A stretch of 37,224 nucleotides of DNA from a virus (taxonomy: Duplodnaviria > Caudoviricetes): the IMG/VR virus record IMGVR_UViG_3300037308_000183, positions 1-37,224 of that record; one strand, 5' to 3'. Of the stretch, positions 3,270 through 23,372 are shown one piece after another. A program made the translations under genes and the position numbers. The notes below the pieces were generated by a model that saw only the letters and a list, made by a program, of their open reading frames with translations, did not search any database and was not told the origin of the DNA. How positions within the stretch are numbered: the stretch's first letter is position 1; each line of letters begins with the position of its first letter.

Positions 3270-4019
3270 ATGGGACTGGACCTCGCCACGCTGGCACAGG
3301 CCTTCGGCACTGGGGTCGGCGGATACTTGCAGGGGCGCACCGAGAAGAAGCGGTACGAGACCGAGCAGGCCGAGCGGAAGAGCGAGCGCGAGCGGGAGCA
3401 GGCGCGGTACGAGGACGAGCGTCAGCGGCAGACCGAGCGGGATGCCGTCGCCGCCGCCTCGGCCGAGTCGCTCAACCGCGCCCGGAACGCGGAGCAGGAG
3501 CGCTACGAGACCGAGCGGGCCGAGAAGGTGGCGGCGCGGGGATCGCGGGCGCGGGCGCTCGAAGAGGCCGTGATGCGGGGCGCCGCGAACGAGCAGGAGC
3601 GGGCCCAGATCGCCGCCGACCTCAGCAAACTGCCGGACGATGAGGCGGGGGTTGCCTATCTGGAGCAGGCGCTGGAGCGCCAGAAGGAGGGGCGCACCCA
3701 GCGGCACCAGATGGGCATGACCACGGCCCGAGCCACGGCCGACGAGCCGACGCGGCAGGAGCGCATCATGGCTCACGCCCAGCGGCTGGCACAGTCGGGC
3801 GAGATGACGCCGGAGGAGGCCTACGAGGAGGCGGTCGCCCTGTACGACCAGCAGGACCTGCAGGCCGCCGTCCGCGCGGTGCGCGCGAAGATCGCCTCGG
3901 GGGCGCCGCTCTCGCCACAAGAGAAGCGGGTCGCGGATGAGATGGGCCTGCTCCCACCGGAGGGCATCCCGGACGCCTTCCAGCAGGCGATCGTCAACCT
4001 CCGCACCCCGCCCCGGTGA
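3270..4019 (+). CDS. Putative ejection protein, coiled-coil
   Basis: N-terminal LAQAFGTGVGGYLQG followed by an E/R/Q-rich coiled coil. Confidence 0.6.
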   Translation: MGLDLATLAQAFGTGVGGYLQGRTEKKRYETEQAERKSEREREQARYEDERQRQTERDAVAAASAESLNRARNAEQERYETERAEKVAARGSRARALEEAVMRGAANEQERAQIAADLSKLPDDEAGVAYLEQALERQKEGRTQRHQMGMTTARATADEPTRQERIMAHAQRLAQSGEMTPEEAYEEAVALYDQQDLQAAVRAVRAKIASGAPLSPQEKRVADEMGLLPPEGIPDAFQQAIVNLRTPPR

Positions 4020-7000
4020 CCGCCCCGATCGACTGGCGCGCGGTAGACCGGGCCTTGGCTCGGCGCCGCCAGCGTCGCGAGGAGCGCGAGCCCGTCGCAC
4101 CCACCGAGGACGAGGGGCCGTCGTGGTGGGAGCGCAAGAAGCAGGAGTTTCTTGCTGGGATGGACGTAGGCGAGTCAACGGCTGGCGGGCTGGAGAGTAG
4201 TGCGCTGGCGACCGGCGCCGGACTGGCGTCCATTCCCGACCTCCTGATCCCCGATGACGCCCAGAACGCCGTCGCCCGGAGCCTGAACGAGTTCAGCAAA
4301 GGGCTGTCGCGGGCGGCGACCGAGCGGAAGAACCGGCTGGCCGAGGAGGCCATGGCCCTGCGGGAGGGCGAGGAAGCGCCGACCGGGTTCTGGGATGCCG
4401 TCACCCGGCCGCGCACGCTGGGGTACTTGGGTGGACGTTTGGGCGGGGACGTGGCGCAGTTCGCGGCCGGTGGGGCCGCCCTTCGCGGTGCCGGAGCCGG
4501 GCTGGGGATGACGCGCGCCGCCGGGACCGGGAAGCTGGCCGATGTCCTGCGGGCGGCCGGAAGCGTGGCCAGCAAGTTCCCGAAGACGGCTGGCGCCGCT
4601 GGCCGGATCGCCTCGGGCGCCGCCGCCTCCGTGCCGATCTCGGTGGCCCAGAGCCTCGGGGACCCGGAGGAGTCGGTCCTCCCGGCCTACGAGATGCTCA
4701 CCAAGAAGCCTCTCAGCCCCGGCATGGAGGCCGTGAACGAGAACCCGATCACCCGGGCGGCGTTCAACGCCGGAGTGGATGCGGGAATCGGCACCCTCTT
4801 CGAGGCCTTCCCGGCCATGGCCCGGGTGATGCGCGCCACCAAGGGCGAGAAGATCGCTCCGACAGGTGAGCGGCTGGCCCAGCAGGTCAAGCACGTCCGT
4901 TCGGCCGAGCGGCTGGGGAACATGGACCCGCTCGCCCGGCGGGTGATGCCGGGTCAGTTTGCTGAGACCGGGGTGCCGGGTCCTACGGCCCCCCTGAAGC
5001 GGCTGGCGCAGGTCGAGGAGCAGGGCGCGCAGGCGCGCCGGGTGGCCGATCTGGAGGCCGAGCCCTCCCGGTTCCCGGGCGAGGTCGAGGAGGCGCTGGC
5101 CAGCCACCGCGAGGGCGCCGAGCAGGCCGCCCGGGTTGCTGAAGCCTCCGCCGAGCGGGCCCGGCTGGCCGCCGAGGCCACTGCCCACCGCGAGGCCCTG
5201 CGGCAGGCCATCGAAGAACACTCGGCCCGCGCCGGGCAGGGGCTCCCGACCCCACGGCGGGGGCAGACCCACGCCCAGATTCGGGACGAGCAGATCGAAG
5301 CCGGGGTGGCGGCACGGGAGATCGAACCCCCACCCGCCCGGTCCCCGCACTACGCCGCCCAGCGGCTCCTGCCGCTCGGAGAGGCGCTAGGACTGCCGAA
5401 GAAGTGGCGGAAGGCTGTCCCACCCGCCGCCGCCGGGATCGGGGCTCTGGGGGCCTCCCAGCTTGCAGGAGACCCATCGGAGGAGATCGACCGCGCCGCC
5501 ATCGACCCGGCAACGGCCGCGATTCTGGCGGGCCTGCTCGGGGCGGGGGCCCTGAAGGCCGGGGCGAAGGGCGTGAAGCCCGCCGCCGCCGCCGCCGCGC
5601 GGGCCCGGGGGGTCGCGGAGCGGGTCCTGAAGCCCGCCATCCAGATCAAGAGCTTCCGGGGGAACCTGATCGATGAGGTCTGGACCGGGGAGAACCACCT
5701 CGACGCCGCCATGAAGGCGGTGCGGGACCTCAAGGATCGGGGCCTGCCGGTCACCCGGGAGATGCTGGATCAGGCCTACGATCGGGAGATGGTGGACGGC
5801 TTCCTGACCACGCACGGCCGGTTCGTGAACCGCCACGCGGCGGGCGAGATGGAGGGGATGCCCCACGCCACCTCGCTCATCTCCGAACAGTTGGAAGGGA
5901 CGGCGGAGGGGCGGGCGGCGTCGGCGCTGGAGCCGGAGCGGATCACCGGAGCGGCGACGATCATCACCCGGGTGCCTGCGCGGGCTCGGACCATGGTGGA
6001 CATCGACGAGGTGTTTACTGGGACCAGCCATCTGGAGTCCGGTCAGCGGGCGGCGCGGGTGCTGGGGATGAGCATGGAGGACGCCTACGCACAGGGCTAC
6101 CTGAAGGACGGCTTCCAGACCACGCGGCGGAAGTTCATCACTCGCGCGACGGCGCGGGACGTGGCCGAGATGTCCGGGCAGGTGGAGAAGGGCGCGTGGC
6201 GCGACAAGGAACTGGTCAGCGAGATGCTCGACTTCGGGCCGAAGCGGCCCGGCGCCATGCGCGCCGCCGCCAATGCGCCGAAGGAGATCGAAGCCAAGCC
6301 GGTACTGGTGCCGACGAAGCGCACAGTCGGCTACGGTACAGAGTTCGACACGGCCGACGCCCGGTCCTACGACCTCATTGATGAGCGCGGGCGCAAGGTC
6401 GCCACCGTCGATGCAGTTATCCGCAACGGGCGGGCCAATCTCGACATCGACCCGGTGGGCGGCTACGACGATACGGTCAACCGCTTCGGCCCCGGGGTCA
6501 TGCGGGACTTGCTGGAGCAGTTCCGGGCCATGAACCCCAACGTCCGGGTGCTGACGGGCGAGCGCATCACGGGTGCCGGTGGACTGGGCCCGGCCCGCGC
6601 CTCCGACATTCCACGCAACGTAGAGATTCCGCTTCCCGGTAAGGGGTCGCGTCCCAGCAAAGCGATGATCCCGCAGGAGTCGAAGACCGAGCGACTCATC
6701 CCGCGCTTGCAGGAACTGGACGAGGAGAACGTAGACGAGATCAACACGATGGTGATGGACGCTCTGCGGCCCGAGGGCGCCGATCTGGTGGCCGAGGCGG
6801 TCGGTATCCCCGGGCACCGGGTGGCGATCGCTTCGGGGCGCGGCCATTGGGGCAAACACCTCACGCCGAACACGATCATGGCGCTCCACCGGGACACGCC
6901 GGTCGAGAAGGTGCGGATGCTGGCGGCGGCGCACGGGATCGTGCAGGGCCAGCGGGCGCAGGTCTGGATGCAGATGGTGCCGGAGGGCACCGAAGGCGCC

Positions 7001-10000
7001 AGCAAAGGCTGGGTGATCCGCACGGGCGCGAACGCCGACCTGACGGCGTCCGAGTACCGCACCCTGACCGAGACGATCGACGGCGACGCGCGATTCGCGG
7101 CGCTCGACGGCTCGACGTTCACGGGGCGCGAGGCTATATTTAGGAACTTCACCGACACCCCGGACGACGAGTACGCCCGCCTGCTCACGGAAGCGGCGGA
7201 CGAGGCTGGTCTCGACGTGGGGATCGCGACCCGCCACTTCATCGGGGAGTACCTCGACGATGCCAGTGCGTTCGTTGGAGCTTTCGCCGGAGACCGAGGC
7301 GCGCTTGAGCGGGTACTTGATCTCCTCCGCACCCGGACAGGGCCCCTCTTCGAAAGCATCGGAGAAACCCTCGGAGACGCCGACGTCCCCACCCGAGTCC
7401 GCGACTGGATTCGACAGGTCGAAGACGCCGCCGGGCTCCGCCCCCGCGAAGTAATCCCCGAGCCCCGCTGGAGCGAGCGGGGCAGTATCCCGCTGGCCAA
7501 GGCGCGCTCCACCGAGCCGCGCGTCACCACGCCGAAGCAGGCGCCGCAGGACCTCACGACCCCTGCAGGGCGCGAGCGGTTGCGGGCGAGCGGCGTCAAG
7601 GTCAGCGATCGCATCGAAGTCCTGCACCGGCTCATCCGACGTGAGCGCGTGGCGCCGGTCGCCGATGACGCGACGTGGGCGGATCGCATTGCGCGCGGCC
7701 GGAGGCTGGGCCTGCGAGACGTGTCCCGGGCCCTGAAGATGGACCGGGTGCGTGACGCCATCCGCTGGTTCAAGGAGGACGTCCGCAAGCTGGACGACTA
7801 CGCCGTCGCGTGGCAACCGGAACTGCGTGACCCCAGCAAGATGACGCTGTTCCACGTCGTCGCGGCGCTGACGTCAGCGGGTCAGAACCCCACCGAGAAC
7901 CTGAAGATGGCGCTGGCGATCATGCGGCGCTATCACCGGACGGGTGACGTCAGGATGGGTCAGGTTGTCAGGACGGGCAAGGGCACCGGACGGCGACTGG
8001 ACTTCCGTCCCGGCGACGTGCCCGGCGCGAAGACGCAAGCCACGATCGGTGGGGCGCTGGAGAAACTCCAGACGGTGCTGGAGAAGTACCCGGGCGATCT
8101 CGACGCCGCCATGAAGCACCTGCTCACGCCCACCGTGGACGACATCGGGGTCCGCATGTACCCGACGTTCGAACTGTTCGGCGACAAGCTGGGTCGGTAT
8201 GCCTTGAACCTGAACGGCATCCACGACGAGGCGACGGTCGATCTCTGGATGATGCGGCAGTACCGCCGCTGGATGGGCGAGATCAAGGTCACCAAGGCCA
8301 ACACGGGTGGGGACGAGAAGGGGTATATCCTGCACGACGTGCCGACCATCGAAGAGAAGCGGGCGGTGCGGCGGATTCTCACGGACGTGGCGGACGCCCT
8401 CAGCAAACAGCAGGATAAACACTACGACGTCTCGGACGTGCAGGCCCTGCTGTGGTACTACGAGAAGGAACTGTTCGGGGACCCGCTGGGGTCCTACGCC
8501 GAATCCTTCCGCGACCTGATGATGAGGCACTACGATGAGCGGAACTTCACAGCGACCACCGTCGAGCGACTTGCCGCATCCCGAGGTACTCGAAAGGTTA
8601 GCAAGCCTCTCGGAGGCTGGGACGCTCCCGAGTATCGCCGACCTGAAAAGCGCCCTACGGTCACTGATGAGGCAGACGTTCTCCGCAACCTCCGAGGGCG
8701 CCCGCACATCATCGGCGCGGCCGGAGCCGTCGGCGCCGGAGCAGTCGCCGACCAGCTAATCGGCGACGAGGAGGAGGGCGAAGGTCCGACCGAGGCCGGG
8801 CTCGGGAAGAAGCTCGGGATCGCAGGTGCCGCCCTGCTGGGCGGAGGAGCGGCCCGGAAGGCGCTGGCGAAGGCCGCGCCCGAGGTGGCCCCGACGGTGC
8901 GAGTGCCGTTCCAGACGCCACGGGGGATGCGGACCATCGAACGGCGCGTGCCTCCGCACGCCCGCCCCGTGGGTAGGGTGGACGCCGCCGGATACAGCCA
9001 CCAACTGAAGAGCTTCCCGACGGCCCTGCGCCAGAAGGTGCGTGACGAGGCCGAGCGGCTGATCGCCGCCGGAGAATTGCCGCAGAAGCGGACGGTGGGC
9101 TGGGACGAGACGCGCGAGGTGGCCCGCAGGCTCAACATGGATGACATCATGCGCGCCGACCTGAACGGCGACGTGGATGGCACCACGCTGGCGGCGATGT
9201 CGAGCGTGTACCAGCGCAACGAGGACACGATCAGCAAGCTGACGGCGCAGTTGGCTGAGGCGTCGAGCCCCACGAAGTTCGACGAGAACCGGATGGTGGG
9301 CGCCGCGAACCAGTTGGACCACCTGCTCGACCAGCAAACGCAGTTGGTGAAGATGTTCTTCCCCCGCGTGAGCGAGGCCGGGCGCACCCTGAACACCCTG
9401 AAGATGACGGCGGGCCGGGGGCTGAAGCCGGAGAACGAGTTCCAGTGGCACGTCCGCCTGCGCCGGGTGGCTGGGCGCGACCTCCTGCCCGAGGAACTGG
9501 TGGCCCTGCGGCAGGCGCTGAAGCACGCCGACCACGCGAAGGTGCGGCAGTTGGCCGAGTCGCTGGTGAAGCCGATCCACTGGCTCTCGCCCGAGGCGAT
9601 CCTCACGCTCCGCAAGGCGGGCCTGCTGACGGGTCTGCGGACGCAGGCGCGCAACCTCCTGTCGAACACGACCGAGGGGGTCATGCGGCAGGGCGACGCC
9701 GGGGGTGCGGCGGTCCTCGACTGGCTGGCCAGCAAGTTCACGGGGGTGCGGACGACGGCGTTCGATCCGGTGGGGCGGATTCAGGCCTCGGCCCGGGGCG
9801 CCCGGCGCGCGTTCGGCAAGGACGGCACGTTCGCGCAGGTGATGCGCGGCGAACTGGGAAGCGATTACCTGCGGAAGCTGGACCTCCCGGCCGAGACGAA
9901 GATCGGCGGAGCCCCCGTCCGCCTCAGTAAAACGCTCGACAGCTACCAGAAGTTCATGTTCCGGGTGCAGGGCGCCGCCGACCAGCCCGCCCGACAGGCC

Positions 10001-11410
10001 GCCATCGTCGAGAGCCTGTGGGAGCAGGCGCGCGTGATGGCCCGGGAGCAGGGGGTCAAGGACGTCGATGCCTTCGTGAACCAGAGCATCGATGACGCTC
10101 TGAAGCAGATCGACGCTGTCCACAAGGACGGCATCCTCTCGGACATGGCGATTCAGGCGATCGTGGACGCCGAGGAGGCGGTGTTCCAGAACCGATCGGT
10201 GTTCGGCGACATCATGGGTGGCGCACGGGTCTGGCTGAAGAGCCGGGCACAGAAGCCCGGAACGCTGGGGCGTGGAGCCCGCATCGGTCAGCACGTCCTC
10301 GACTTCGTGGTGCCGTTCTCCCGCACGCCCGGGGCAGTCCTGTCGCGCGTCTTCGAGCGCACCCCGCTCGGCATGCTGGACGGGCTGATGGGGCTGTACG
10401 AACTGAACAAGGCGACCAAGCTGGGCTTGGACGCGGCCACACTGCGGCAGATGCAACGCGCGGCCAGCAAGCGCTTCGGGCGGGGGGCGACCGGCACGAT
10501 CGCGATCGCGCTCGGGGCGCTGGCCGCCAGCAAGGGCAAGGCCTCGGGACGGTGGCCCACGGATCAGGCCGAGGCGCAGAAGTGGATGCAGGAAGGCAGG
10601 CCCGAGGACGCGGTCCTCCTCAACGGCCGGTGGCGGAAGCTGACGGGGGTGTCGCCGCTCGGGAACCTGTTCGCCATCGGGGCGCAGATGTACCTCGACG
10701 CGAAGAACGGCGAGCAGGGGGTCATGGAGAAGGCGGTGATCGACCCGGCGATGACGGGCCTGCGGACGATCAAGGAGCAGAGTTTCCTGAAGGGCACCGC
10801 CGATCTCCTGAACGCCATCGAAAACAAGCGTGGGGAGCGGGAGCGCTTCGTGCCCACGCTGACGGGGTCGTTCGTGCCGACCATCGTCGGCGACTGGGCG
10901 CGGTTCATCGATCCCACCCTGCGCGACACCAAGGGGAGCGCATGGGATGGAGTGCGCGCCCGTCTGCCGGTCATCAGCTACAGCGTTCCGGTAAAGCTGG
11001 ACGAGTTGGGCAGGCCGAAGGTGCTGGAGCAGACGACGGCCGAGCGGGCAACGAGGCTCGTCGATCCGTTCATTTCCCAGACACCTCGGGGGGCACGCGA
11101 CCCCTTGCTGGGAGAGATGAACCGGGTCGGAGCCACCGTGCCGCGTCGCAACCGCGAGGCGGACGAAACACCCGAGGCGTTCCGCGAGCGCCAGCAGGAG
11201 GAAGGACGGGAACTGCAGGAGGCCATGGGCGAGTTGTTCGCCAACGGTCGGTATCGGCAGTTGTCGCCGGAGGACAAACAGCAGGCGGCCGAGTTCTTGG
11301 TGACCTCGGTGCGCTCGCGCTTGTCGCGTTCCCGCAAGAGTGGGAGGGCGGCGCCGGAGTCGTGGAGAGGATCAGTGGGACGGGCGATCGGCAAGGCAAG
11401 GCAAGAATGA
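4016..11410 (+). CDS. Giant multidomain (polyvalent-type) internal virion/ejection protein, 2464 aa
   Basis: Single long ORF with high GC3; GTGA/ATGA overlaps at both ends; Gly/Ala membrane-like segments, a duplicated small domain, an HhH-glycosylase-like block and an LPD38-like C-terminus (VVPFSRTP). Confidence 0.85.
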   Translation: MTAPIDWRAVDRALARRRQRREEREPVAPTEDEGPSWWERKKQEFLAGMDVGESTAGGLESSALATGAGLASIPDLLIPDDAQNAVARSLNEFSKGLSRAATERKNRLAEEAMALREGEEAPTGFWDAVTRPRTLGYLGGRLGGDVAQFAAGGAALRGAGAGLGMTRAAGTGKLADVLRAAGSVASKFPKTAGAAGRIASGAAASVPISVAQSLGDPEESVLPAYEMLTKKPLSPGMEAVNENPITRAAFNAGVDAGIGTLFEAFPAMARVMRATKGEKIAPTGERLAQQVKHVRSAERLGNMDPLARRVMPGQFAETGVPGPTAPLKRLAQVEEQGAQARRVADLEAEPSRFPGEVEEALASHREGAEQAARVAEASAERARLAAEATAHREALRQAIEEHSARAGQGLPTPRRGQTHAQIRDEQIEAGVAAREIEPPPARSPHYAAQRLLPLGEALGLPKKWRKAVPPAAAGIGALGASQLAGDPSEEIDRAAIDPATAAILAGLLGAGALKAGAKGVKPAAAAAARARGVAERVLKPAIQIKSFRGNLIDEVWTGENHLDAAMKAVRDLKDRGLPVTREMLDQAYDREMVDGFLTTHGRFVNRHAAGEMEGMPHATSLISEQLEGTAEGRAASALEPERITGAATIITRVPARARTMVDIDEVFTGTSHLESGQRAARVLGMSMEDAYAQGYLKDGFQTTRRKFITRATARDVAEMSGQVEKGAWRDKELVSEMLDFGPKRPGAMRAAANAPKEIEAKPVLVPTKRTVGYGTEFDTADARSYDLIDERGRKVATVDAVIRNGRANLDIDPVGGYDDTVNRFGPGVMRDLLEQFRAMNPNVRVLTGERITGAGGLGPARASDIPRNVEIPLPGKGSRPSKAMIPQESKTERLIPRLQELDEENVDEINTMVMDALRPEGADLVAEAVGIPGHRVAIASGRGHWGKHLTPNTIMALHRDTPVEKVRMLAAAHGIVQGQRAQVWMQMVPEGTEGASKGWVIRTGANADLTASEYRTLTETIDGDARFAALDGSTFTGREAIFRNFTDTPDDEYARLLTEAADEAGLDVGIATRHFIGEYLDDASAFVGAFAGDRGALERVLDLLRTRTGPLFESIGETLGDADVPTRVRDWIRQVEDAAGLRPREVIPEPRWSERGSIPLAKARSTEPRVTTPKQAPQDLTTPAGRERLRASGVKVSDRIEVLHRLIRRERVAPVADDATWADRIARGRRLGLRDVSRALKMDRVRDAIRWFKEDVRKLDDYAVAWQPELRDPSKMTLFHVVAALTSAGQNPTENLKMALAIMRRYHRTGDVRMGQVVRTGKGTGRRLDFRPGDVPGAKTQATIGGALEKLQTVLEKYPGDLDAAMKHLLTPTVDDIGVRMYPTFELFGDKLGRYALNLNGIHDEATVDLWMMRQYRRWMGEIKVTKANTGGDEKGYILHDVPTIEEKRAVRRILTDVADALSKQQDKHYDVSDVQALLWYYEKELFGDPLGSYAESFRDLMMRHYDERNFTATTVERLAASRGTRKVSKPLGGWDAPEYRRPEKRPTVTDEADVLRNLRGRPHIIGAAGAVGAGAVADQLIGDEEEGEGPTEAGLGKKLGIAGAALLGGGAARKALAKAAPEVAPTVRVPFQTPRGMRTIERRVPPHARPVGRVDAAGYSHQLKSFPTALRQKVRDEAERLIAAGELPQKRTVGWDETREVARRLNMDDIMRADLNGDVDGTTLAAMSSVYQRNEDTISKLTAQLAEASSPTKFDENRMVGAANQLDHLLDQQTQLVKMFFPRVSEAGRTLNTLKMTAGRGLKPENEFQWHVRLRRVAGRDLLPEELVALRQALKHADHAKVRQLAESLVKPIHWLSPEAILTLRKAGLLTGLRTQARNLLSNTTEGVMRQGDAGGAAVLDWLASKFTGVRTTAFDPVGRIQASARGARRAFGKDGTFAQVMRGELGSDYLRKLDLPAETKIGGAPVRLSKTLDSYQKFMFRVQGAADQPARQAAIVESLWEQARVMAREQGVKDVDAFVNQSIDDALKQIDAVHKDGILSDMAIQAIVDAEEAVFQNRSVFGDIMGGARVWLKSRAQKPGTLGRGARIGQHVLDFVVPFSRTPGAVLSRVFERTPLGMLDGLMGLYELNKATKLGLDAATLRQMQRAASKRFGRGATGTIAIALGALAASKGKASGRWPTDQAEAQKWMQEGRPEDAVLLNGRWRKLTGVSPLGNLFAIGAQMYLDAKNGEQGVMEKAVIDPAMTGLRTIKEQSFLKGTADLLNAIENKRGERERFVPTLTGSFVPTIVGDWARFIDPTLRDTKGSAWDGVRARLPVISYSVPVKLDELGRPKVLEQTTAERATRLVDPFISQTPRGARDPLLGEMNRVGATVPRRNREADETPEAFRERQQEEGRELQEAMGELFANGRYRQLSPEDKQQAAEFLVTSVRSRLSRSRKSGRAAPESWRGSVGRAIGKARQE
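7112..7140 (+). promoter_or_regulatory. Internal sigma70-like promoter inside the giant gene
   Basis: TCGACG-N17-TATATT; the -10 box sits on rare host-frame codons GCT ATA TTT AGG; nearly identical to the intergenic TTGACG-N17-TATATT at 23696-23724. Confidence 0.55.
7260..7454 (+). CDS. Nested +1-frame small protein (64 aa) within the giant gene
   Basis: GGGGAG 10 nt upstream of ATG; host-frame A/T-ending codons about 22/66 here versus about 2/60 at 6901-7080 (hand count); TAA stop. Confidence 0.5.
   Translation: MPVRSLELSPETEARLSGYLISSAPGQGPSSKASEKPSETPTSPPESATGFDRSKTPPGSAPAK
8535..8759 (+). CDS. Nested +1-frame small protein (74 aa) within the giant gene
   Basis: GAGG 7 nt upstream of ATG; host-frame A/T-ending codons about 27/76; helical core PEVLERLASLSEAGTLPSIADLKSALRSLMRQTF; TAA stop. 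Confidence 0.55.
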   Translation: MSGTSQRPPSSDLPHPEVLERLASLSEAGTLPSIADLKSALRSLMRQTFSATSEGARTSSARPEPSAPEQSPTS

Positions 11411-19356: not shown

Positions 19357-19559
19357 CGGAGCGCCTCCTTCAGCACCCCAGCCTCCACGCCGAACCGGGT
19401 GCGCTCGGCGGGGCTCATGGCGTTGCTGTCCTCCAGCAAGTCGGCGATCTCGGCGGCGACGTCGCACACCGGGCAGGCGCCCGGCTGGTGGTGCGGGTTG
19501 TGGTCGTGGTGACGCCGCAGGATCGCGGCGAGCGAGTGGAACAGGTGGTGGCGCATCAT
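19353..19559 (-). CDS. His/Cys-rich small hypothetical protein
   Basis: HHDHNPHHQPGACPVC; coupled to its neighbours. Confidence 0.65.
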   Translation of the reverse strand: MMRHHLFHSLAAILRRHHDHNPHHQPGACPVCDVAAEIADLLEDSNAMSPAERTRFGVEAGVLKEALR

Positions 19560-20356
19560 CAGCGGGCCTCCTCCTTGCGGAGCGACTCCAGTGCGTCGTC
19601 CGCGTTCTCGGTGACGTGGGTGTCGGTGAACCAGTGATCGATCGCCTGCTCGTCGCGCTCGCGAGCGGCGAGGAAGTCGTTCAGGCCCTTCAGCAAACCG
19701 GGCTGGCCCAGCAAGTCGGACCCGGCGTACACCAGCGACGGGTCGAGGCCCAGCACCGTCGCCTGCGACTCGGCCGTCGGCAGGATCGTCTTCGACTCGT
19801 ACCCGCCCTTCATCTCGTCCTTGCCGACGAAGATGTAGCAGACCGTCCAGCCACCGACGGCCATGCGGTGCTTCAGGTCGCCGACGACCACGTCGCGCAG
19901 GTACTCGTCCCCGGCGTACCCGTCGGTGATGACGACCAGCAGGTGGGCGGTGTTGCCCGCGAGGTTGTCGGTCTCGTTGCAGAGGACCAGCGCCTGCGCC
20001 ACGGCCGTGTAGAGCGGGGTGTTGCCGCCCGTCGCACGGGGCAGGTAGTCGGCGATCCGGTGGACGGAGGCGAAGCTCCGCACCGCCACCCCGTTCGTTC
20101 CCGGCATCCCAAGGTGCGAGTCGGCGAGGTTCGCGCCGCCGTTGTCGTAGGACGTCCCGAACGTGATCTGCGCCACGTTCACGGTGTCGTCCCGGTGCGC
20201 CGTCGCGTACTCCTGCAGGCGGTGCAGGATCGCGTTCATGGCCTGTGCCGCCTGCTGGGCCTTCTGGGGCGAGGCCGGGTCGCTCCGATCCGCCGGGCTC
20301 CGCATGCTGACCGAATGGTCCATCAGCAGGGTCACGTTGGTCGCCTTGTGTGCCAC
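19559..20356 (-). CDS. von Willebrand factor A domain protein
   Basis: MIDAS DHSVS, GNTPLYTAV and VVITDG motifs. Confidence 0.88.
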   Translation of the reverse strand: MAHKATNVTLLMDHSVSMRSPADRSDPASPQKAQQAAQAMNAILHRLQEYATAHRDDTVNVAQITFGTSYDNGGANLADSHLGMPGTNGVAVRSFASVHRIADYLPRATGGNTPLYTAVAQALVLCNETDNLAGNTAHLLVVITDGYAGDEYLRDVVVGDLKHRMAVGGWTVCYIFVGKDEMKGGYESKTILPTAESQATVLGLDPSLVYAGSDLLGQPGLLKGLNDFLAARERDEQAIDHWFTDTHVTENADDALESLRKEEAR

Positions 20357-20358
20357 GG

Positions 20359-21327
20359 TCAGGCCTCCAGTGCGTAGAGGTTCGCGGTGCCGACGTCCGC
20401 CAGCACGTTCCGCAGGAACGTCACGGTCTGGCGCGCCGTGCGGAGCCGGGGGATCACGATGTGCGCGTCCACCATGCCCGCTTGCTGGAGCGCGGGCAGG
20501 ACCAGCGCCGCTTCCGCCGCCGATCCCATCCCCGGGGTGCAGTCCCACGGGACCAGTTGGGTGCAGGCGAACCCCAGCGAGCGCCAGACGCCGATGTGCG
20601 CGGCCGTGGCGATCACCGTCTCCGGCACCAGCGCCTCCCCGGCCTCCTTCACCCGCAGGTGGATCGCCAGCAGGTCGTGCGTCCAGCCCCACGCAGAGGG
20701 GCGCTGGCGGCCCCACGAGTAGGTGTCGTTCTCCCATGCCGTCGCCACCATGCGGCGGTTCCAGCCCACGGCGCCGACGAGCGACAGGTCGGTGGCGTAC
20801 CCGGCGGGCTCCAGCAAGCTGGAGAGCAGGGTCATGGCGGCGCCGGTCCAGTAGAGGTCCTGCTGGGTGGCGTTGCCGTTCACGCCCCACTCGCCGACGA
20901 TGCAGAGCCGGGTGACGCCCGTCCGCACGGCGCGCCGGGTGGTGCGGAACATCTCGGTCGAGCCGCCGAACACGCGATCGACGCTGACCTCGTCGCCGTC
21001 GTCGCCCCACGCCCGCACCCGGCGGCGCGACTGCGGTGGCGGGACGAGGTCCTCCAGCCCCTCGGTGAGGCGCGTCAGGGCCTCCAGCCCCTCAGTCCAG
21101 CCGCGCATCACGACGTCCACGCCCGCCTGCAGGGACCGGACGCCACCCCGCCACTGCCGGTTCTCGGCGTCGCTCTCGCGGGCCATATCGCGCTCCAGCG
21201 CCATCCGGTTCACCCGGTTGACCTCGGGGACCGGCGCCTTCGGCAGGTCCAGTAGGTCGCCGATGGTCAGCGGCTGGACGATCACCCGGTCGCCGTCGCC
21301 GTCGAGGGGCACCAGCGGCGGAATCAC
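20359..21327 (-). CDS. Degenerate vWA-like partner of the AAA ATPase (DUF7192-like)
   Basis: DDGDEVSVDRVFGG motif followed by an alpha/beta region lacking an intact MIDAS; GTGA-coupled to the ATPase. Confidence 0.65.
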   Translation of the reverse strand: MIPPLVPLDGDGDRVIVQPLTIGDLLDLPKAPVPEVNRVNRMALERDMARESDAENRQWRGGVRSLQAGVDVVMRGWTEGLEALTRLTEGLEDLVPPPQSRRRVRAWGDDGDEVSVDRVFGGSTEMFRTTRRAVRTGVTRLCIVGEWGVNGNATQQDLYWTGAAMTLLSSLLEPAGYATDLSLVGAVGWNRRMVATAWENDTYSWGRQRPSAWGWTHDLLAIHLRVKEAGEALVPETVIATAAHIGVWRSLGFACTQLVPWDCTPGMGSAAEAALVLPALQQAGMVDAHIVIPRLRTARQTVTFLRNVLADVGTANLYALEA

Positions 21328-23372
21328 GCCGCCTCCTGCAGGGCCGGGACCTTGGCCTTCTCGGAGACGGTCCAGCCCGCCGTCAGCTTGCGCTCCACCT
21401 TCGGCTGGTCCCAGAGCCCGGCGGTCATGTAGCGCCACGACTTCAGGACGAACCGGGTGCTGACGTTCTGCGGGATGCGGTGTTCGTTCACGACGTCCCG
21501 GATCGCCCAGAGGCGGGCGAGGAACTGCTCGGCGCCCGGGCCCTGCACCAGCTTGCGCTCCAGCGCCCGGTCGTAGTCCATCTCGACCGTGCCGGTGCGG
21601 AAGCGGTCCATGGTGGCGCCGTCGATCGCGTTGCGGCCAACGTACAGCCGGTTCGCCCCGGTGCCCCAAGTGTTGAACGTCCCGATGAAGACGAAGTCCG
21701 GGTGCTGGCGCGCCTCGGGAGCCATGTGCCGGTTCGGGAGCCCGATGACCCCGTTCGCGAGGGCGCTGTTCAGGACCAGCAGGACGTTGGGGTCGGCGCC
21801 GTCCATCTCGTCGCCGATGAAGATGCCGCCGTTCTCGAAGAACTCGACGAACTTGGTGGGCAGGTAGCCCCACTTCCCGTCCACCGTGACCGGCAGGTAG
21901 CGCCCGGTGAGCGCCGTCTCGGAGATGCCCCCGGAGAGCGGCTGGACGAAGTAGGGCAGGCCCAGCACCTTGCCCAGTTGCATGGCGAGGTGCGTCTTGC
22001 CGCACCCGGTGGGCCCGATGAGGGCGACCGGGTCGCGCATCTGCACCGACTCCAGCACCTCGGCGAGGCAGACGTGGGCGTCGGTCACCGTCTGGATGAC
22101 GGCGCCCTCGCGGGTGATGACCAACTCCACCGTCCGCTGGATCGGCTTCAGGGCCTCGGCGACCGCCTCGTCCACCCAGCGGCGCACCCGGGTCTCGTCG
22201 GAGCCCTTGCGCGCCACGGCCACCCGGACGGCCCGGTCGAGCGACTCGGAGTCGATCGCCTGCGGCGCCTTGGCCATGGCGTTGCTGACGCCCTCGGCGA
22301 CCATGAGGGCGACGTCGGTGCGGGTGGGGCGCGCCTCCAGCCCCACCTTGGTGACCGACGTCAGGGCCTCGACCGTCTGCAGGGCCTCGGTCAGGGCGGG
22401 CTTCACCGTCGAGGCCGCGATCCCGCCGATCAGCACGGCGGCGGCGGGCCCCTCGGCGGGCGGCGCCGTCTTGCGGAGCAGGATGACGTCGCACTCGGCC
22501 TCGGTCTGCTGGGGCGCCTGTACGCCCTGCTGGGCCTCCTTCTGGGCCTTCAGCGACTGGGCGATCTGCTCCAGCGACTGCTTTTCCTGCTGGCCCTGCC
22601 CGGCGCCACCCTTGCCCTGCTTGCCACCCTTACCGCCCTTGCTGGACTTGCCGCCCTTGCTGGAGCCCCGCTCGTCCTGCTCGGGGTCCTGCCGATCCTC
22701 GCCGTCCTCGTCGGCGTCGTCCTCGTCGGCGTCGCCCTCGTCGGCGTCGTCCTCGTCGGCGTCGCCCTCGTCGCCCTCGTCGGCACCATCACCGTCGCCG
22801 GGGACGTCGTCGTTCAGCGGGGTCAGGTCGTCGTCGCCCTCGTCGGCGTCCCCGTCGCCCTCGCCCTCGGCGCCCTGCTCACCGGCCCCGGACCCACCGG
22901 CCCCAGACCCACCCGCCCCACGGTCCTCGCCCTCGCCCACGCCGCCCTTGCCGCCCGCCTTGGGGGCCGCGACGTGCTGGACCTGCCGGTCGTCGCCGCC
23001 CTTGCTGAAGGGGACGCCCCGGGGGCGGTTGCACCGCTCGTCCACGATGTTGGCATCGGGGAACTGCTGGGCCACTTCGGCGCGGGCCTTCTCCATGGCC
23101 TCGGCCTTGTCCTCGGCCTCGACCCGCACCTTCACGGTGCGGAGCCGGGAGCCGACCTTCACCTGCGCCGTGTAGGCGAAGGTGGCGACGTCGCCGTCGC
23201 GGACGGGGCGGGTGCGGGTCACGGGTTCGTCCTCCGGGGTGGTGGTCTCCGGGGTGCCCGCCACGCTGGCGAGCCAGTCCCGGTGCGCCTGCAGGGCGCG
23301 GTCGTAGGCCTCGCGGCCCATCTTCTCGGGGCCCGCCTTGGGCGGCGGGGCGTAGGGAACCCGGGGAGCCAT
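21324..23372 (-). CDS. MoxR/CbbQ/CobS-like AAA+ ATPase with long acidic/Gly-rich N-terminal region
   Basis: Walker A GPTGCGKT, Walker B FIGDEMD, and NTWGTGA..YVGRNAIDGATMDRF. Confidence 0.9.
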   Translation of the reverse strand: MAPRVPYAPPPKAGPEKMGREAYDRALQAHRDWLASVAGTPETTTPEDEPVTRTRPVRDGDVATFAYTAQVKVGSRLRTVKVRVEAEDKAEAMEKARAEVAQQFPDANIVDERCNRPRGVPFSKGGDDRQVQHVAAPKAGGKGGVGEGEDRGAGGSGAGGSGAGEQGAEGEGDGDADEGDDDLTPLNDDVPGDGDGADEGDEGDADEDDADEGDADEDDADEDGEDRQDPEQDERGSSKGGKSSKGGKGGKQGKGGAGQGQQEKQSLEQIAQSLKAQKEAQQGVQAPQQTEAECDVILLRKTAPPAEGPAAAVLIGGIAASTVKPALTEALQTVEALTSVTKVGLEARPTRTDVALMVAEGVSNAMAKAPQAIDSESLDRAVRVAVARKGSDETRVRRWVDEAVAEALKPIQRTVELVITREGAVIQTVTDAHVCLAEVLESVQMRDPVALIGPTGCGKTHLAMQLGKVLGLPYFVQPLSGGISETALTGRYLPVTVDGKWGYLPTKFVEFFENGGIFIGDEMDGADPNVLLVLNSALANGVIGLPNRHMAPEARQHPDFVFIGTFNTWGTGANRLYVGRNAIDGATMDRFRTGTVEMDYDRALERKLVQGPGAEQFLARLWAIRDVVNEHRIPQNVSTRFVLKSWRYMTAGLWDQPKVERKLTAGWTVSEKAKVPALQEAA
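22705..22764 (-). repeat. Four tandem 15-bp repeats encoding the acidic tract DADE(D/G)
   Basis: (T/C)CCTCGTCGGCGTCG x4 on the + strand, plus partial copies. Confidence 0.9.

Follow-up and report, generated by a model that had tools for sequence, protein, structure and literature searches.

Can the small partner proteins of the domains in a giant phage virion protein be encoded within the gene for that protein itself, in another reading frame? The question is raised by a 37,224-base virus record (Duplodnaviria; Caudoviricetes), IMGVR_UViG_3300037308_000183, which is 54% complete and whose whole length is referred to here as the window. A giant gene in the window holds two small open reading frames (ORFs) in its +1 frame, each with a Shine-Dalgarno (SD)-like element ahead of it. 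The features concerned are the following:

4016..11410, plus strand: giant polyvalent-type gene, an ORF of 2464 aa that defines the host frame; likely an internal virion (ejection) protein
6716..7435, plus strand: domain 1, an alpha/beta domain with two beta-alpha-beta (ferredoxin-like) units and three C-terminal helices
7244..7249, plus strand: SD-like element of ORF1, GGGGAG, spacer 10, -7.5 kcal/mol
7260..7454, plus strand: nested ORF1, +1 frame, 64 aa; a probable gene and positional counterpart of the domain-1 peptide family
7736..8533, plus strand: domain 2, predicted to be HhH-GPD DNA-glycosylase-like and related to Pfam DUF7178
8524..8527, plus strand: SD-like element of ORF2, GAGG, spacer 7, -5.7 kcal/mol
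8535..8759, plus strand: nested ORF2, +1 frame, 74 aa, with a two-helix-like core conserved at about 8562-8678

Sequence comparison makes it likely that each nested frame is the small partner in a cassette of domain and peptide, and that such cassettes are exchanged between the giant virion proteins of phages. Within the window, the structural claims of an original prediction made from the letters of this DNA were largely confirmed. Both +1 ORFs were found where it had placed them, each opening with ATG and closing with a TAA that is made with a rare host codon, GTA (7451) and CTA (8756), respectively, the latter being one of only two CTA codons in the gene. The SD-like sites were likewise present, with energies like those of the majority of ordinary gene starts in the window, and that of ORF2 lies where folding is weak (among the top 3% of the gene in this respect). 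The prediction had also held that the host frame loses its third-position G/C bias (GC3) over these intervals. A/T-ending host codons numbered 22/65 over ORF1 and 27/75 over ORF2 compared with 2/60 at 6901-7080, against a gene-wide count of 306/2465 and 11.1% outside the ORFs (binomial P 9e-7 for ORF1 and 1e-8 for ORF2). In the sliding-window check, the maximum elsewhere in the gene was 15/65 (2133 windows) or 16/75 (2103 windows), leaving ORF1 and ORF2 as the two lowest-GC3 stretches of the giant gene, and the observed counts were reached anywhere in 3/2000 shuffles for ORF1 and 0/2000 for ORF2. Three further +1 ATG ORFs of at least 25 codons in the same gene displayed A/T-ending fractions of 0.08-0.21. 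The suggestion that both peptides have helical cores, as opposed to Ser/Pro/Thr/Ala shadow sequence, stood for ORF2, which is clearly helix-like (core motif LPHP...L..L...G.L), and not for ORF1; a helix-like core is clear in ORF2 only, because the share of these four residues is high in both peptides (55% in ORF1 and 53% in ORF2; 43% and 47%, respectively, in the first 30 residues).

Homologous loci were then compared for the same arrangement. The domain-2 set comprised the best 80 of 189 IMG/VR loci, two GenBank phages and the window, 83 loci in all, 68 of which had at least 110 host residues after the QxxLW motif of the domain and are referred to as internal-domain loci. A +1 ATG ORF of at least 30 codons was present directly behind domain 2 in 63 of these 68. 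Clustering at 60% identity gave 28 domain-2 clusters, and leaving out six in which the domain was C-terminal or truncated gave 22, all of which carried the ORF (22/22 vs 7.6 expected when the host protein was fixed and its codons resampled), with an SD in 19/22 vs 3.0 expected. The domain-1 set, to which 44 further loci were added, comprised 51 domain copies in 28 clusters at 75% identity, the window included. Here, a +1 ATG ORF was found at the domain end in 28/28 clusters vs 12.8 expected under the same resampling, with an SD in 24/28 vs 5.2 expected. The check proposed with the original prediction, that homologues keep a +1 ORF with an SD at the domain ends, thus came out in its favour for both domains, and the +2 frame used as a control gave 0/22 and 0/28 clusters for domains 2 and 1, respectively. 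The search windows had been chosen after seeing the data and were therefore applied unchanged to held-out JGI loci (the best 80 of 141). Twelve of these were less than 60% identical to the earlier loci, eight of them with an internal domain; in these eight clusters the ORF was present in 6/8 (2.3 expected) and the SD in 5/8 (1.0 expected). Across the JGI set, a peptide-profile match lay within 900 nt behind domain 2 in 46/80 loci, and a further match was located just behind the domain on the other strand.

The nested frames are also conserved as proteins. When 14,301 six-frame segments were searched with a profile built on 11 LPHP peptides, all from other viruses, the window ORF2 was matched at E=5.5e-5, the next non-cognate match having an E value of 2.9. 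In the 11 LPHP loci, nucleotide identity at host codon positions 1/2/3 was 0.53/0.68/0.39 within domain 2 and 0.39/0.48/0.58 within the tail behind it, a flip that persisted when the alignment was made on the host frame, and amino-acid identity in the tail was 0.34-0.39 in the +1 frame vs 0.21-0.22 in the host frame. The same flip was seen in two other domain-2 subfamilies; EAVRRV and YDQEFA flip only with the +1-frame alignment, and a cluster without a nested ORF displayed no flip. ORF2 is very likely a real protein-coding gene under selection, as far as comparison of homologous sequences can indicate. Identity of domain and peptide was correlated across loci (rho 0.56, 0/5000 permutations); we did not take this to indicate co-evolution, as linked kin have it in common. 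Unannotated +1 ORFs were seen behind the same domains in MW805363 (Octadecabacter virus BD1; 6755-6994) and MW202640 (7136-7324 and 7805-8047), the giant proteins of both being annotated as crystallin-motif proteins.

Where domain 2 is not internal, the partner may be a gene of its own. In seven loci with domain 2 at the protein end (L017, L019, L038, L039, L040, L046 and L063), the next free-standing gene was peptide-like, and such a gene also comes next in L036. These genes, from the seven loci and L036, encode 56-84 aa with a similar L...G-x-[LM]-P...L pattern, and the free-standing type is represented by 475 called, unnamed proteins in a large database. A profile of the best 120 of these 475 found copies of the other forms at E values from 5e-8 to 3.5e-3, overlapped in L018, L024, L050 and L056 and fully embedded in the L074-L082 group, whilst an independent embedded copy in L127 matched the seven-gene profile at E=4.4e-4. 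Because free-gene profiles find all three, the G-x-[LM]-P peptide type exists in separated, overlapped and embedded forms. When peptides alone were used as queries, 15/15 domain-2 peptide matches adjoined the domain, all on contigs already known for domain 2. These sequence data suggest that the peptide follows the domain and not the linker, and that domain and peptide together resemble an effector-partner cassette, of which embedded, overlapped and separated versions exist. A small partner gene is tightly linked to the domain across contexts, with L167 and L235 as exceptions. The occurrence of one peptide type in all three forms offers a direct view of nested-gene origin, which may have begun with a domain gene and a downstream partner gene, the partner becoming embedded once fusion to more domains had lengthened the upstream frame. 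In L171 (about 3330-3490, minus strand), a free-standing domain-2 peptide gene lies just behind the domain in opposite orientation. L127 (5001-5900) carries domain 2, the embedded peptide and a strong SD; its contig is filed under an uncultured Thermoplasmatales genome and may be viral or mis-binned.

Domain 2 itself, which in the window protein is internal and lies 985 aa from the end, is predicted to have an HhH-GPD glycosylase fold with likely catalytic Lys and Asp residues. Its AlphaFold2 model (predicted local distance difference test, pLDDT, 74) had as its best fold match in VIA the Thermotoga maritima 8-oxoguanine (8-oxoG) glycosylase (Z 11.6, root-mean-square deviation (rmsd) 4.1, 186 aligned), a score to be read with caution as Z is under about 13 on a helical fold; the top 23 rows all held glycosylases or folds related to them, the first row of another kind having a Z of 5.2. 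Foldseek ranked the same glycosylase family first at E 0.016, below the significance mark, and a PDB sequence search returned chance matches only, with no sequence-level match to solved structures. Lys1391 (8186-8188) and Asp1409 (8240-8242) were invariant in 28/28 aligned members, and the Lys/Asp motif was detected by pattern in 82/83 loci, the missed locus, L002, in fact displaying it. Their separation of 18 residues is what we take to be the catalytic-pair spacing of OGG and Endo III, and the equivalence is drawn from that spacing. DUF7178 was found in 9/28 domain-2 members (Atlas score 0.97), and the family is large, with 3288 cluster representatives at E<=0.001 (50% clustering).

Domain 1 was modelled with higher scores (pLDDT 87.5). 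Fold searches with it gave no clear match (VIA best Z 7.3, rmsd 2.6, 72 aligned; Foldseek best E 0.004; no usable Atlas match), and a SAM-AMP lyase row at Z 5.8 was too weak to be retained. It is a mobile module that is found in other giant proteins. Most domain-1 peptides form one family with the consensus MPVRxMTxEExxxIFGNGLVLFGQK, and over 17 loci identity at host codon positions 1/2/3 shifted from 0.56/0.70/0.36 in domain 1 to 0.59/0.67/0.70 over the peptide. In a peptide-only search, 23/23 matches lay 6-7 codons behind domain 1, three of them on new contigs. The window ORF1 occupies the family position and shares its first four residues with the consensus. The prediction that each ORF begins right after its domain was accurate for ORF2, which follows domain 2; ORF1, by contrast, does not lie in a linker and overlaps the three C-terminal helices that are predicted with confidence for domain 1.

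A candidate internal promoter lies within the coding sequence of domain 1:

7112..7140, plus strand: sigma70-like promoter candidate, TCGACG-17-TATATT, with its -10 box 125 nt before the ORF1 ATG

This was the only consensus-like sigma70 site in the 7.4-kb gene. It uses the single ATA codon of the gene (1 of 91 Ile), and 0/200 synonymous resamplings gave a site at 7112-7140. In domain-1 relatives, a TTGAC-17-TATAAT-like site was present within 250 nt of the nested ATG in 18/28 clusters vs 5.3 expected with the protein fixed, at exactly -58 in 10 of those 18, and it persisted in the GC-rich L094, L097 and L098, where only 0.01-0.03 was expected each. One internal transcript could serve both ORF1 and ORF2.

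The nature of the giant gene bears on what such pairs might do. The C-terminal part of its product matched PHROG 6651, 'internal virion protein' (E 5.7e-13), whilst a Pfam search with the giant protein was without a match. PF18760 and PF18857, which we take to be ART-PolyVal and LPD38, were present in giant proteins that hold domain-2 relatives. Because of these matches, we regard the gene as encoding a polyvalent-type protein, in the sense in which the available passages of Iyer et al. 2017 (PMC5512222) describe giant multidomain proteins with shuffled enzymatic domains near virion genes. The window product is large and composed of multiple shuffled domains, and virion genes form the context of its gene. 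Shuffling was evident in that P0164, 43% identical to the window giant protein, has domain 1 and lacks domain 2, and in a varying domain order (2 then 1 in L002 and L010; 1 then 2 in L022, L044 and the window), each of the two domains keeping the peptide at its own end whichever the order. The giant protein would presumably be packaged in the virion and injected.

We lean towards a mechanism in which each peptide binds and inhibits its accompanying domain, the target of ORF2 being a predicted DNA glycosylase/lyase. The injected domain 2 would excise DNA bases, and inhibition by a separately transcribed peptide would set the timing of the injected copy and keep progeny DNA safe while late synthesis proceeds. 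The mechanism starts from +1 ORFs with SDs that lie at fixed positions behind each domain, are conserved as proteins and move with the domain in any order, and from a domain 2 that is predicted to be an HhH-GPD enzyme with catalytic Lys and Asp. Once delivered as part of the packaged protein, domain 2 would excise bases from host, rival or modified DNA. Host RNA polymerase would transcribe the peptide gene inside the giant gene independently of late expression, as the conserved sigma70-like site suggests, and the peptide, present before new giant protein is made, would turn off the copy that had been injected, shield the DNA of the progeny and perhaps also exclude superinfecting kin. More tentatively, giant ejection proteins may be strings of effector-antidote cassettes, each injected domain having its own out-of-frame inhibitor gene and a host-type promoter in its codons; an early-expressed layer of inhibitors, including a new family of DNA-glycosylase inhibitors, might then lie under the late gene, and nested peptides might mark which uncharacterized domains are weapons. 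If the peptides are inhibitors, this would account for the ability of a cell to produce a virion protein full of domains that attack DNA, and would provide a rule for pairing unknown domains with regulators as well as candidate HhH glycosylase inhibitors. The complex prediction for domain 2 with the ORF2 core gave a score of 0.39 vs 0.02 for the best control (at least 60% of contacts agreeing between runs, partner pLDDT at least 63), weak support given that the mark was reached by 116/157 solved and 2/215 mismatched pairs and, at scores of 0.60 or below, by only 18/157 solved pairs and both mismatches.

Several results weigh against the cassette and antidote interpretation. With regard to peptide relationships, profiles of the free genes gave E values of only 0.62 and 1.2 for the window ORF2, although a combined profile gave E=0.001; the profile-profile comparison of free and LPHP peptides was not significant (E=0.084), and no relationship could be detected between several of the peptide types that follow domain 2. 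Five of the 68 internal-domain loci lacked a 30-codon ATG ORF, the free-standing gene being present in one of them, L036. L167, at 35% identity the nearest relative of domain 2 among the DNA retrieved, keeps the Lys/Asp pair and has stops in the +1 frame, no peptide-profile match was found in its 5.7-kb locus, and L235 is also without a nested ORF. The nearest fold of domain 2 is a repair enzyme, the 8-oxoG glycosylase, which would have no need of an antidote, and domain 1 shows no sign of toxicity or enzyme activity. The promoter signal for domain 2 was marginal (12/22 vs 8.0 expected, P=0.026), and a promoter-like site for ORF2 itself was sought in the window and not found. Finally, the domain-1 peptide profile matched ORF1 only at its first four residues, and ORF1 is less certain than ORF2 for that reason. 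The interpretation offered with the original prediction, of virion-delivered enzymatic domains each travelling with an overprinted inhibitor, held only in part: ORF2 very likely codes for a protein on which selection acts, specific domains have nested +1 ORFs tied to them, and domain 2 has a predicted HhH-GPD fold with a likely catalytic Lys/Asp, whereas domain 1 has no assignable enzyme function and, past those four residues, ORF1 shows no detectable homology with the domain-1 peptide family. Separately, a domain-1-like region upstream in L167 (2501-3223) has its own +1 ORF with an SD.

We consider ORF1 to be probably a real gene. The contrary reading, that ORF2 is real and the window ORF1 is a decayed or chance frame, has a limited but appreciable likelihood and is not exclusive of the other alternatives below. 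It is consistent with the end of the profile match after four residues, with the Ser/Pro/Thr/Ala share of 55% and with the frequency at which an SD and ATG ORF arise there by codon resampling with the host protein fixed (17%). DNA of close relatives was searched for and none was found: single-sequence locus searches of IMG/VR with either domain and a domain-1 search of phage records gave nothing, and a window-first alignment search and whole-protein alignment in metagenomes gave no loci, the DNA of the close relatives P0002 and P0164 not being found. Contigs from sequencing runs came from the probable source samples, together with short pieces that had too few variants within the ORFs for a selection test, and no RNA run was listed with the sequence. 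Against chance stand the 22/65 A/T-ending codons over ORF1 (P 9e-7; 3/2000 shuffles), its family position and shared first four residues, and the location of the gene's only promoter-like site just upstream.

A somewhat smaller likelihood attaches to the proposal that the peptides are cognate partners of the domains that do not inhibit them, acting instead as chaperones, activators, specificity subunits or packaging/ejection adaptors. All of the co-inheritance data and the weak complex score would fit any binding partner, the nearest fold of domain 2 is a repair enzyme, and nested genes often support the function of the host gene, according to the part of PMC11230408 consulted. An activator or chaperone, however, has no obvious need for its own host-type promoter (18/28 vs 5.3), and unrelated peptides behind one conserved domain would be more like immunity turnover than an obligate subunit. 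Rather less probable again is that the peptides are independent early proteins with anti-defence, exclusion or regulatory roles, riding the cassette with no contact with the domain. The promoter-like site and SD lie within the domain-1 coding sequence, physical linkage alone would explain the co-travel of embedded copies, and L167 has the domain without the peptide. Linkage nonetheless holds where the genes are separated (eight loci), even in opposite orientation (L171), and peptide-only matches adjoined the domain in 15/15 cases for domain 2 and 23/23 for domain 1, albeit mostly on known contigs that were found again. Ribosomal frameshifting that gives truncated giant proteins with alternative C-termini would suit the same strand, the +1 frame and the position at domain ends; it is very improbable given that an ATG with an SD is conserved (19/22 and 24/28 clusters), that a +1 stop lies three codons before the ORF2 ATG (segment start 8526) and that similar peptides are known as free genes. 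Least credible is an artefact of shadow frames in low-complexity linkers: +1 ORFs are indeed common in GC-rich genes (null 13-15% per window) and the peptide tails are S/P-rich, but the codon-position flip, the excess over the resampling null, the held-out replication and the free-standing genes of the same type all speak against it.

A cassette of domain and inhibitory peptide would resemble several known systems in part. Compared with the polyvalent proteins of Iyer et al., a giant multidomain protein near virion genes is shared and domain-2 relatives carry PF18760 and PF18857; in the main text of PMC5512222 the words 'glycosylase' and 'overlap' have 0 occurrences and its available passages contain no nested partner genes, although its supplementary domain files may list these domains. 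In MuF polymorphic toxins of temperate phages, as presented in the portion of PMC5576092 consulted, a variable effector domain is followed by a small ORF, as in the separated L017-type loci; the MuF toxin is C-terminal and its partner a separate gene, whereas in the present case most copies of the domain are internal, with a partner nested in another frame. A MuF domain was not detected in the giant protein, which is not counted as a member of that class. Rpn gene-within-gene toxin-antitoxin systems (PMC10400984) produce a small inhibitor from an internal start in the enzyme gene, sometimes with a separate copy too. RpnS is in frame, is the toxin's own C-terminus and serves bacterial defence, in contrast to the other frame, unrelated sequence and phage origin here; both ORF1 and ORF2 lie in the +1 frame and are not Rpn-type in-frame antitoxins. 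Rz/Rz1 two-component spanins share the embedded, overlapped and separated partner-gene architectures but are membrane lysis proteins, and the parts of the spanin survey consulted (PMC6139136) report no family in which embedded genes occur alongside either of the other two arrangements, whereas all three are displayed by the G-x-[LM]-P peptide type. The small same-strand genes comS (in srfA) and gndA are similarly hidden in large genes and, as far as the excerpts of PMC11230408 describe them, are single fixed cases and not cassettes repeated behind swappable domains. With the HhH-GPD glycosylases OGG2 and Endo III, domain 2 shares its predicted fold. Defence-associated Dag enzymes, as outlined in the section of bioRxiv 10.1101/2025.10.29.685425 available to us, are an example of HhH enzymes as weapons in phage-host conflict; domain 2 differs from OGG2/Endo III and Dag in being phage-encoded and embedded in a likely virion protein. 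In the open-access literature, we found no relevant account of polyvalent or ejection proteins of phages whose genes hold partner genes that are nested or out of frame, nor one of DUF7178, and Pfam, PHROGs and PADLOC gave no name for either peptide or for the window copies of domains 1 and 2. The cultured phage MW805363 has a +1 ORF at the same place.

There is a third nested peptide family, also in the +1 frame, whose core reads E-x-E-x-D-G-I-R-A-E-A-L-R-R-L. In 18/18 profile-matched loci, and irrespective of the upstream sequence, it overlaps the beginning of another domain that has no name (host motif LAPLEGAP...GPDP). Its loci are L012, L013, L015, L028, L030, L033, L037, L042, L043, L048, L049, L054, L055, L058, L073, L109-L112 and L128:5281, and the peptide is sometimes fused to the domain-1 or domain-2 peptide. 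This family supports the cassette idea, and its overlap with a domain start shows that a position right after the domain, as originally predicted, is not the general rule. There may be a widespread layer of small phage proteins missing from annotation, because gene callers drop nested frames.

Elsewhere in the window, the gene content includes a portal, a terminase small subunit, a helicase, recombination genes and lysis genes. The giant protein also contains a tandem pair of similar short domains at about aa 540-625 and 650-740 (window 5630-6250), the second with a weak match to PHROG 839, and no A/T-raised nested ORF lies behind the pair. Before domain 1, at 6350-6600, there is a small alpha/beta domain with a terminal G-x-R-x-T-G motif, which is apparently mostly missing in P0164. 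Further downstream, a gene pair encoding an AAA ATPase (AAA_5) and a VWA-domain protein occupies 19559-23372 on the minus strand.

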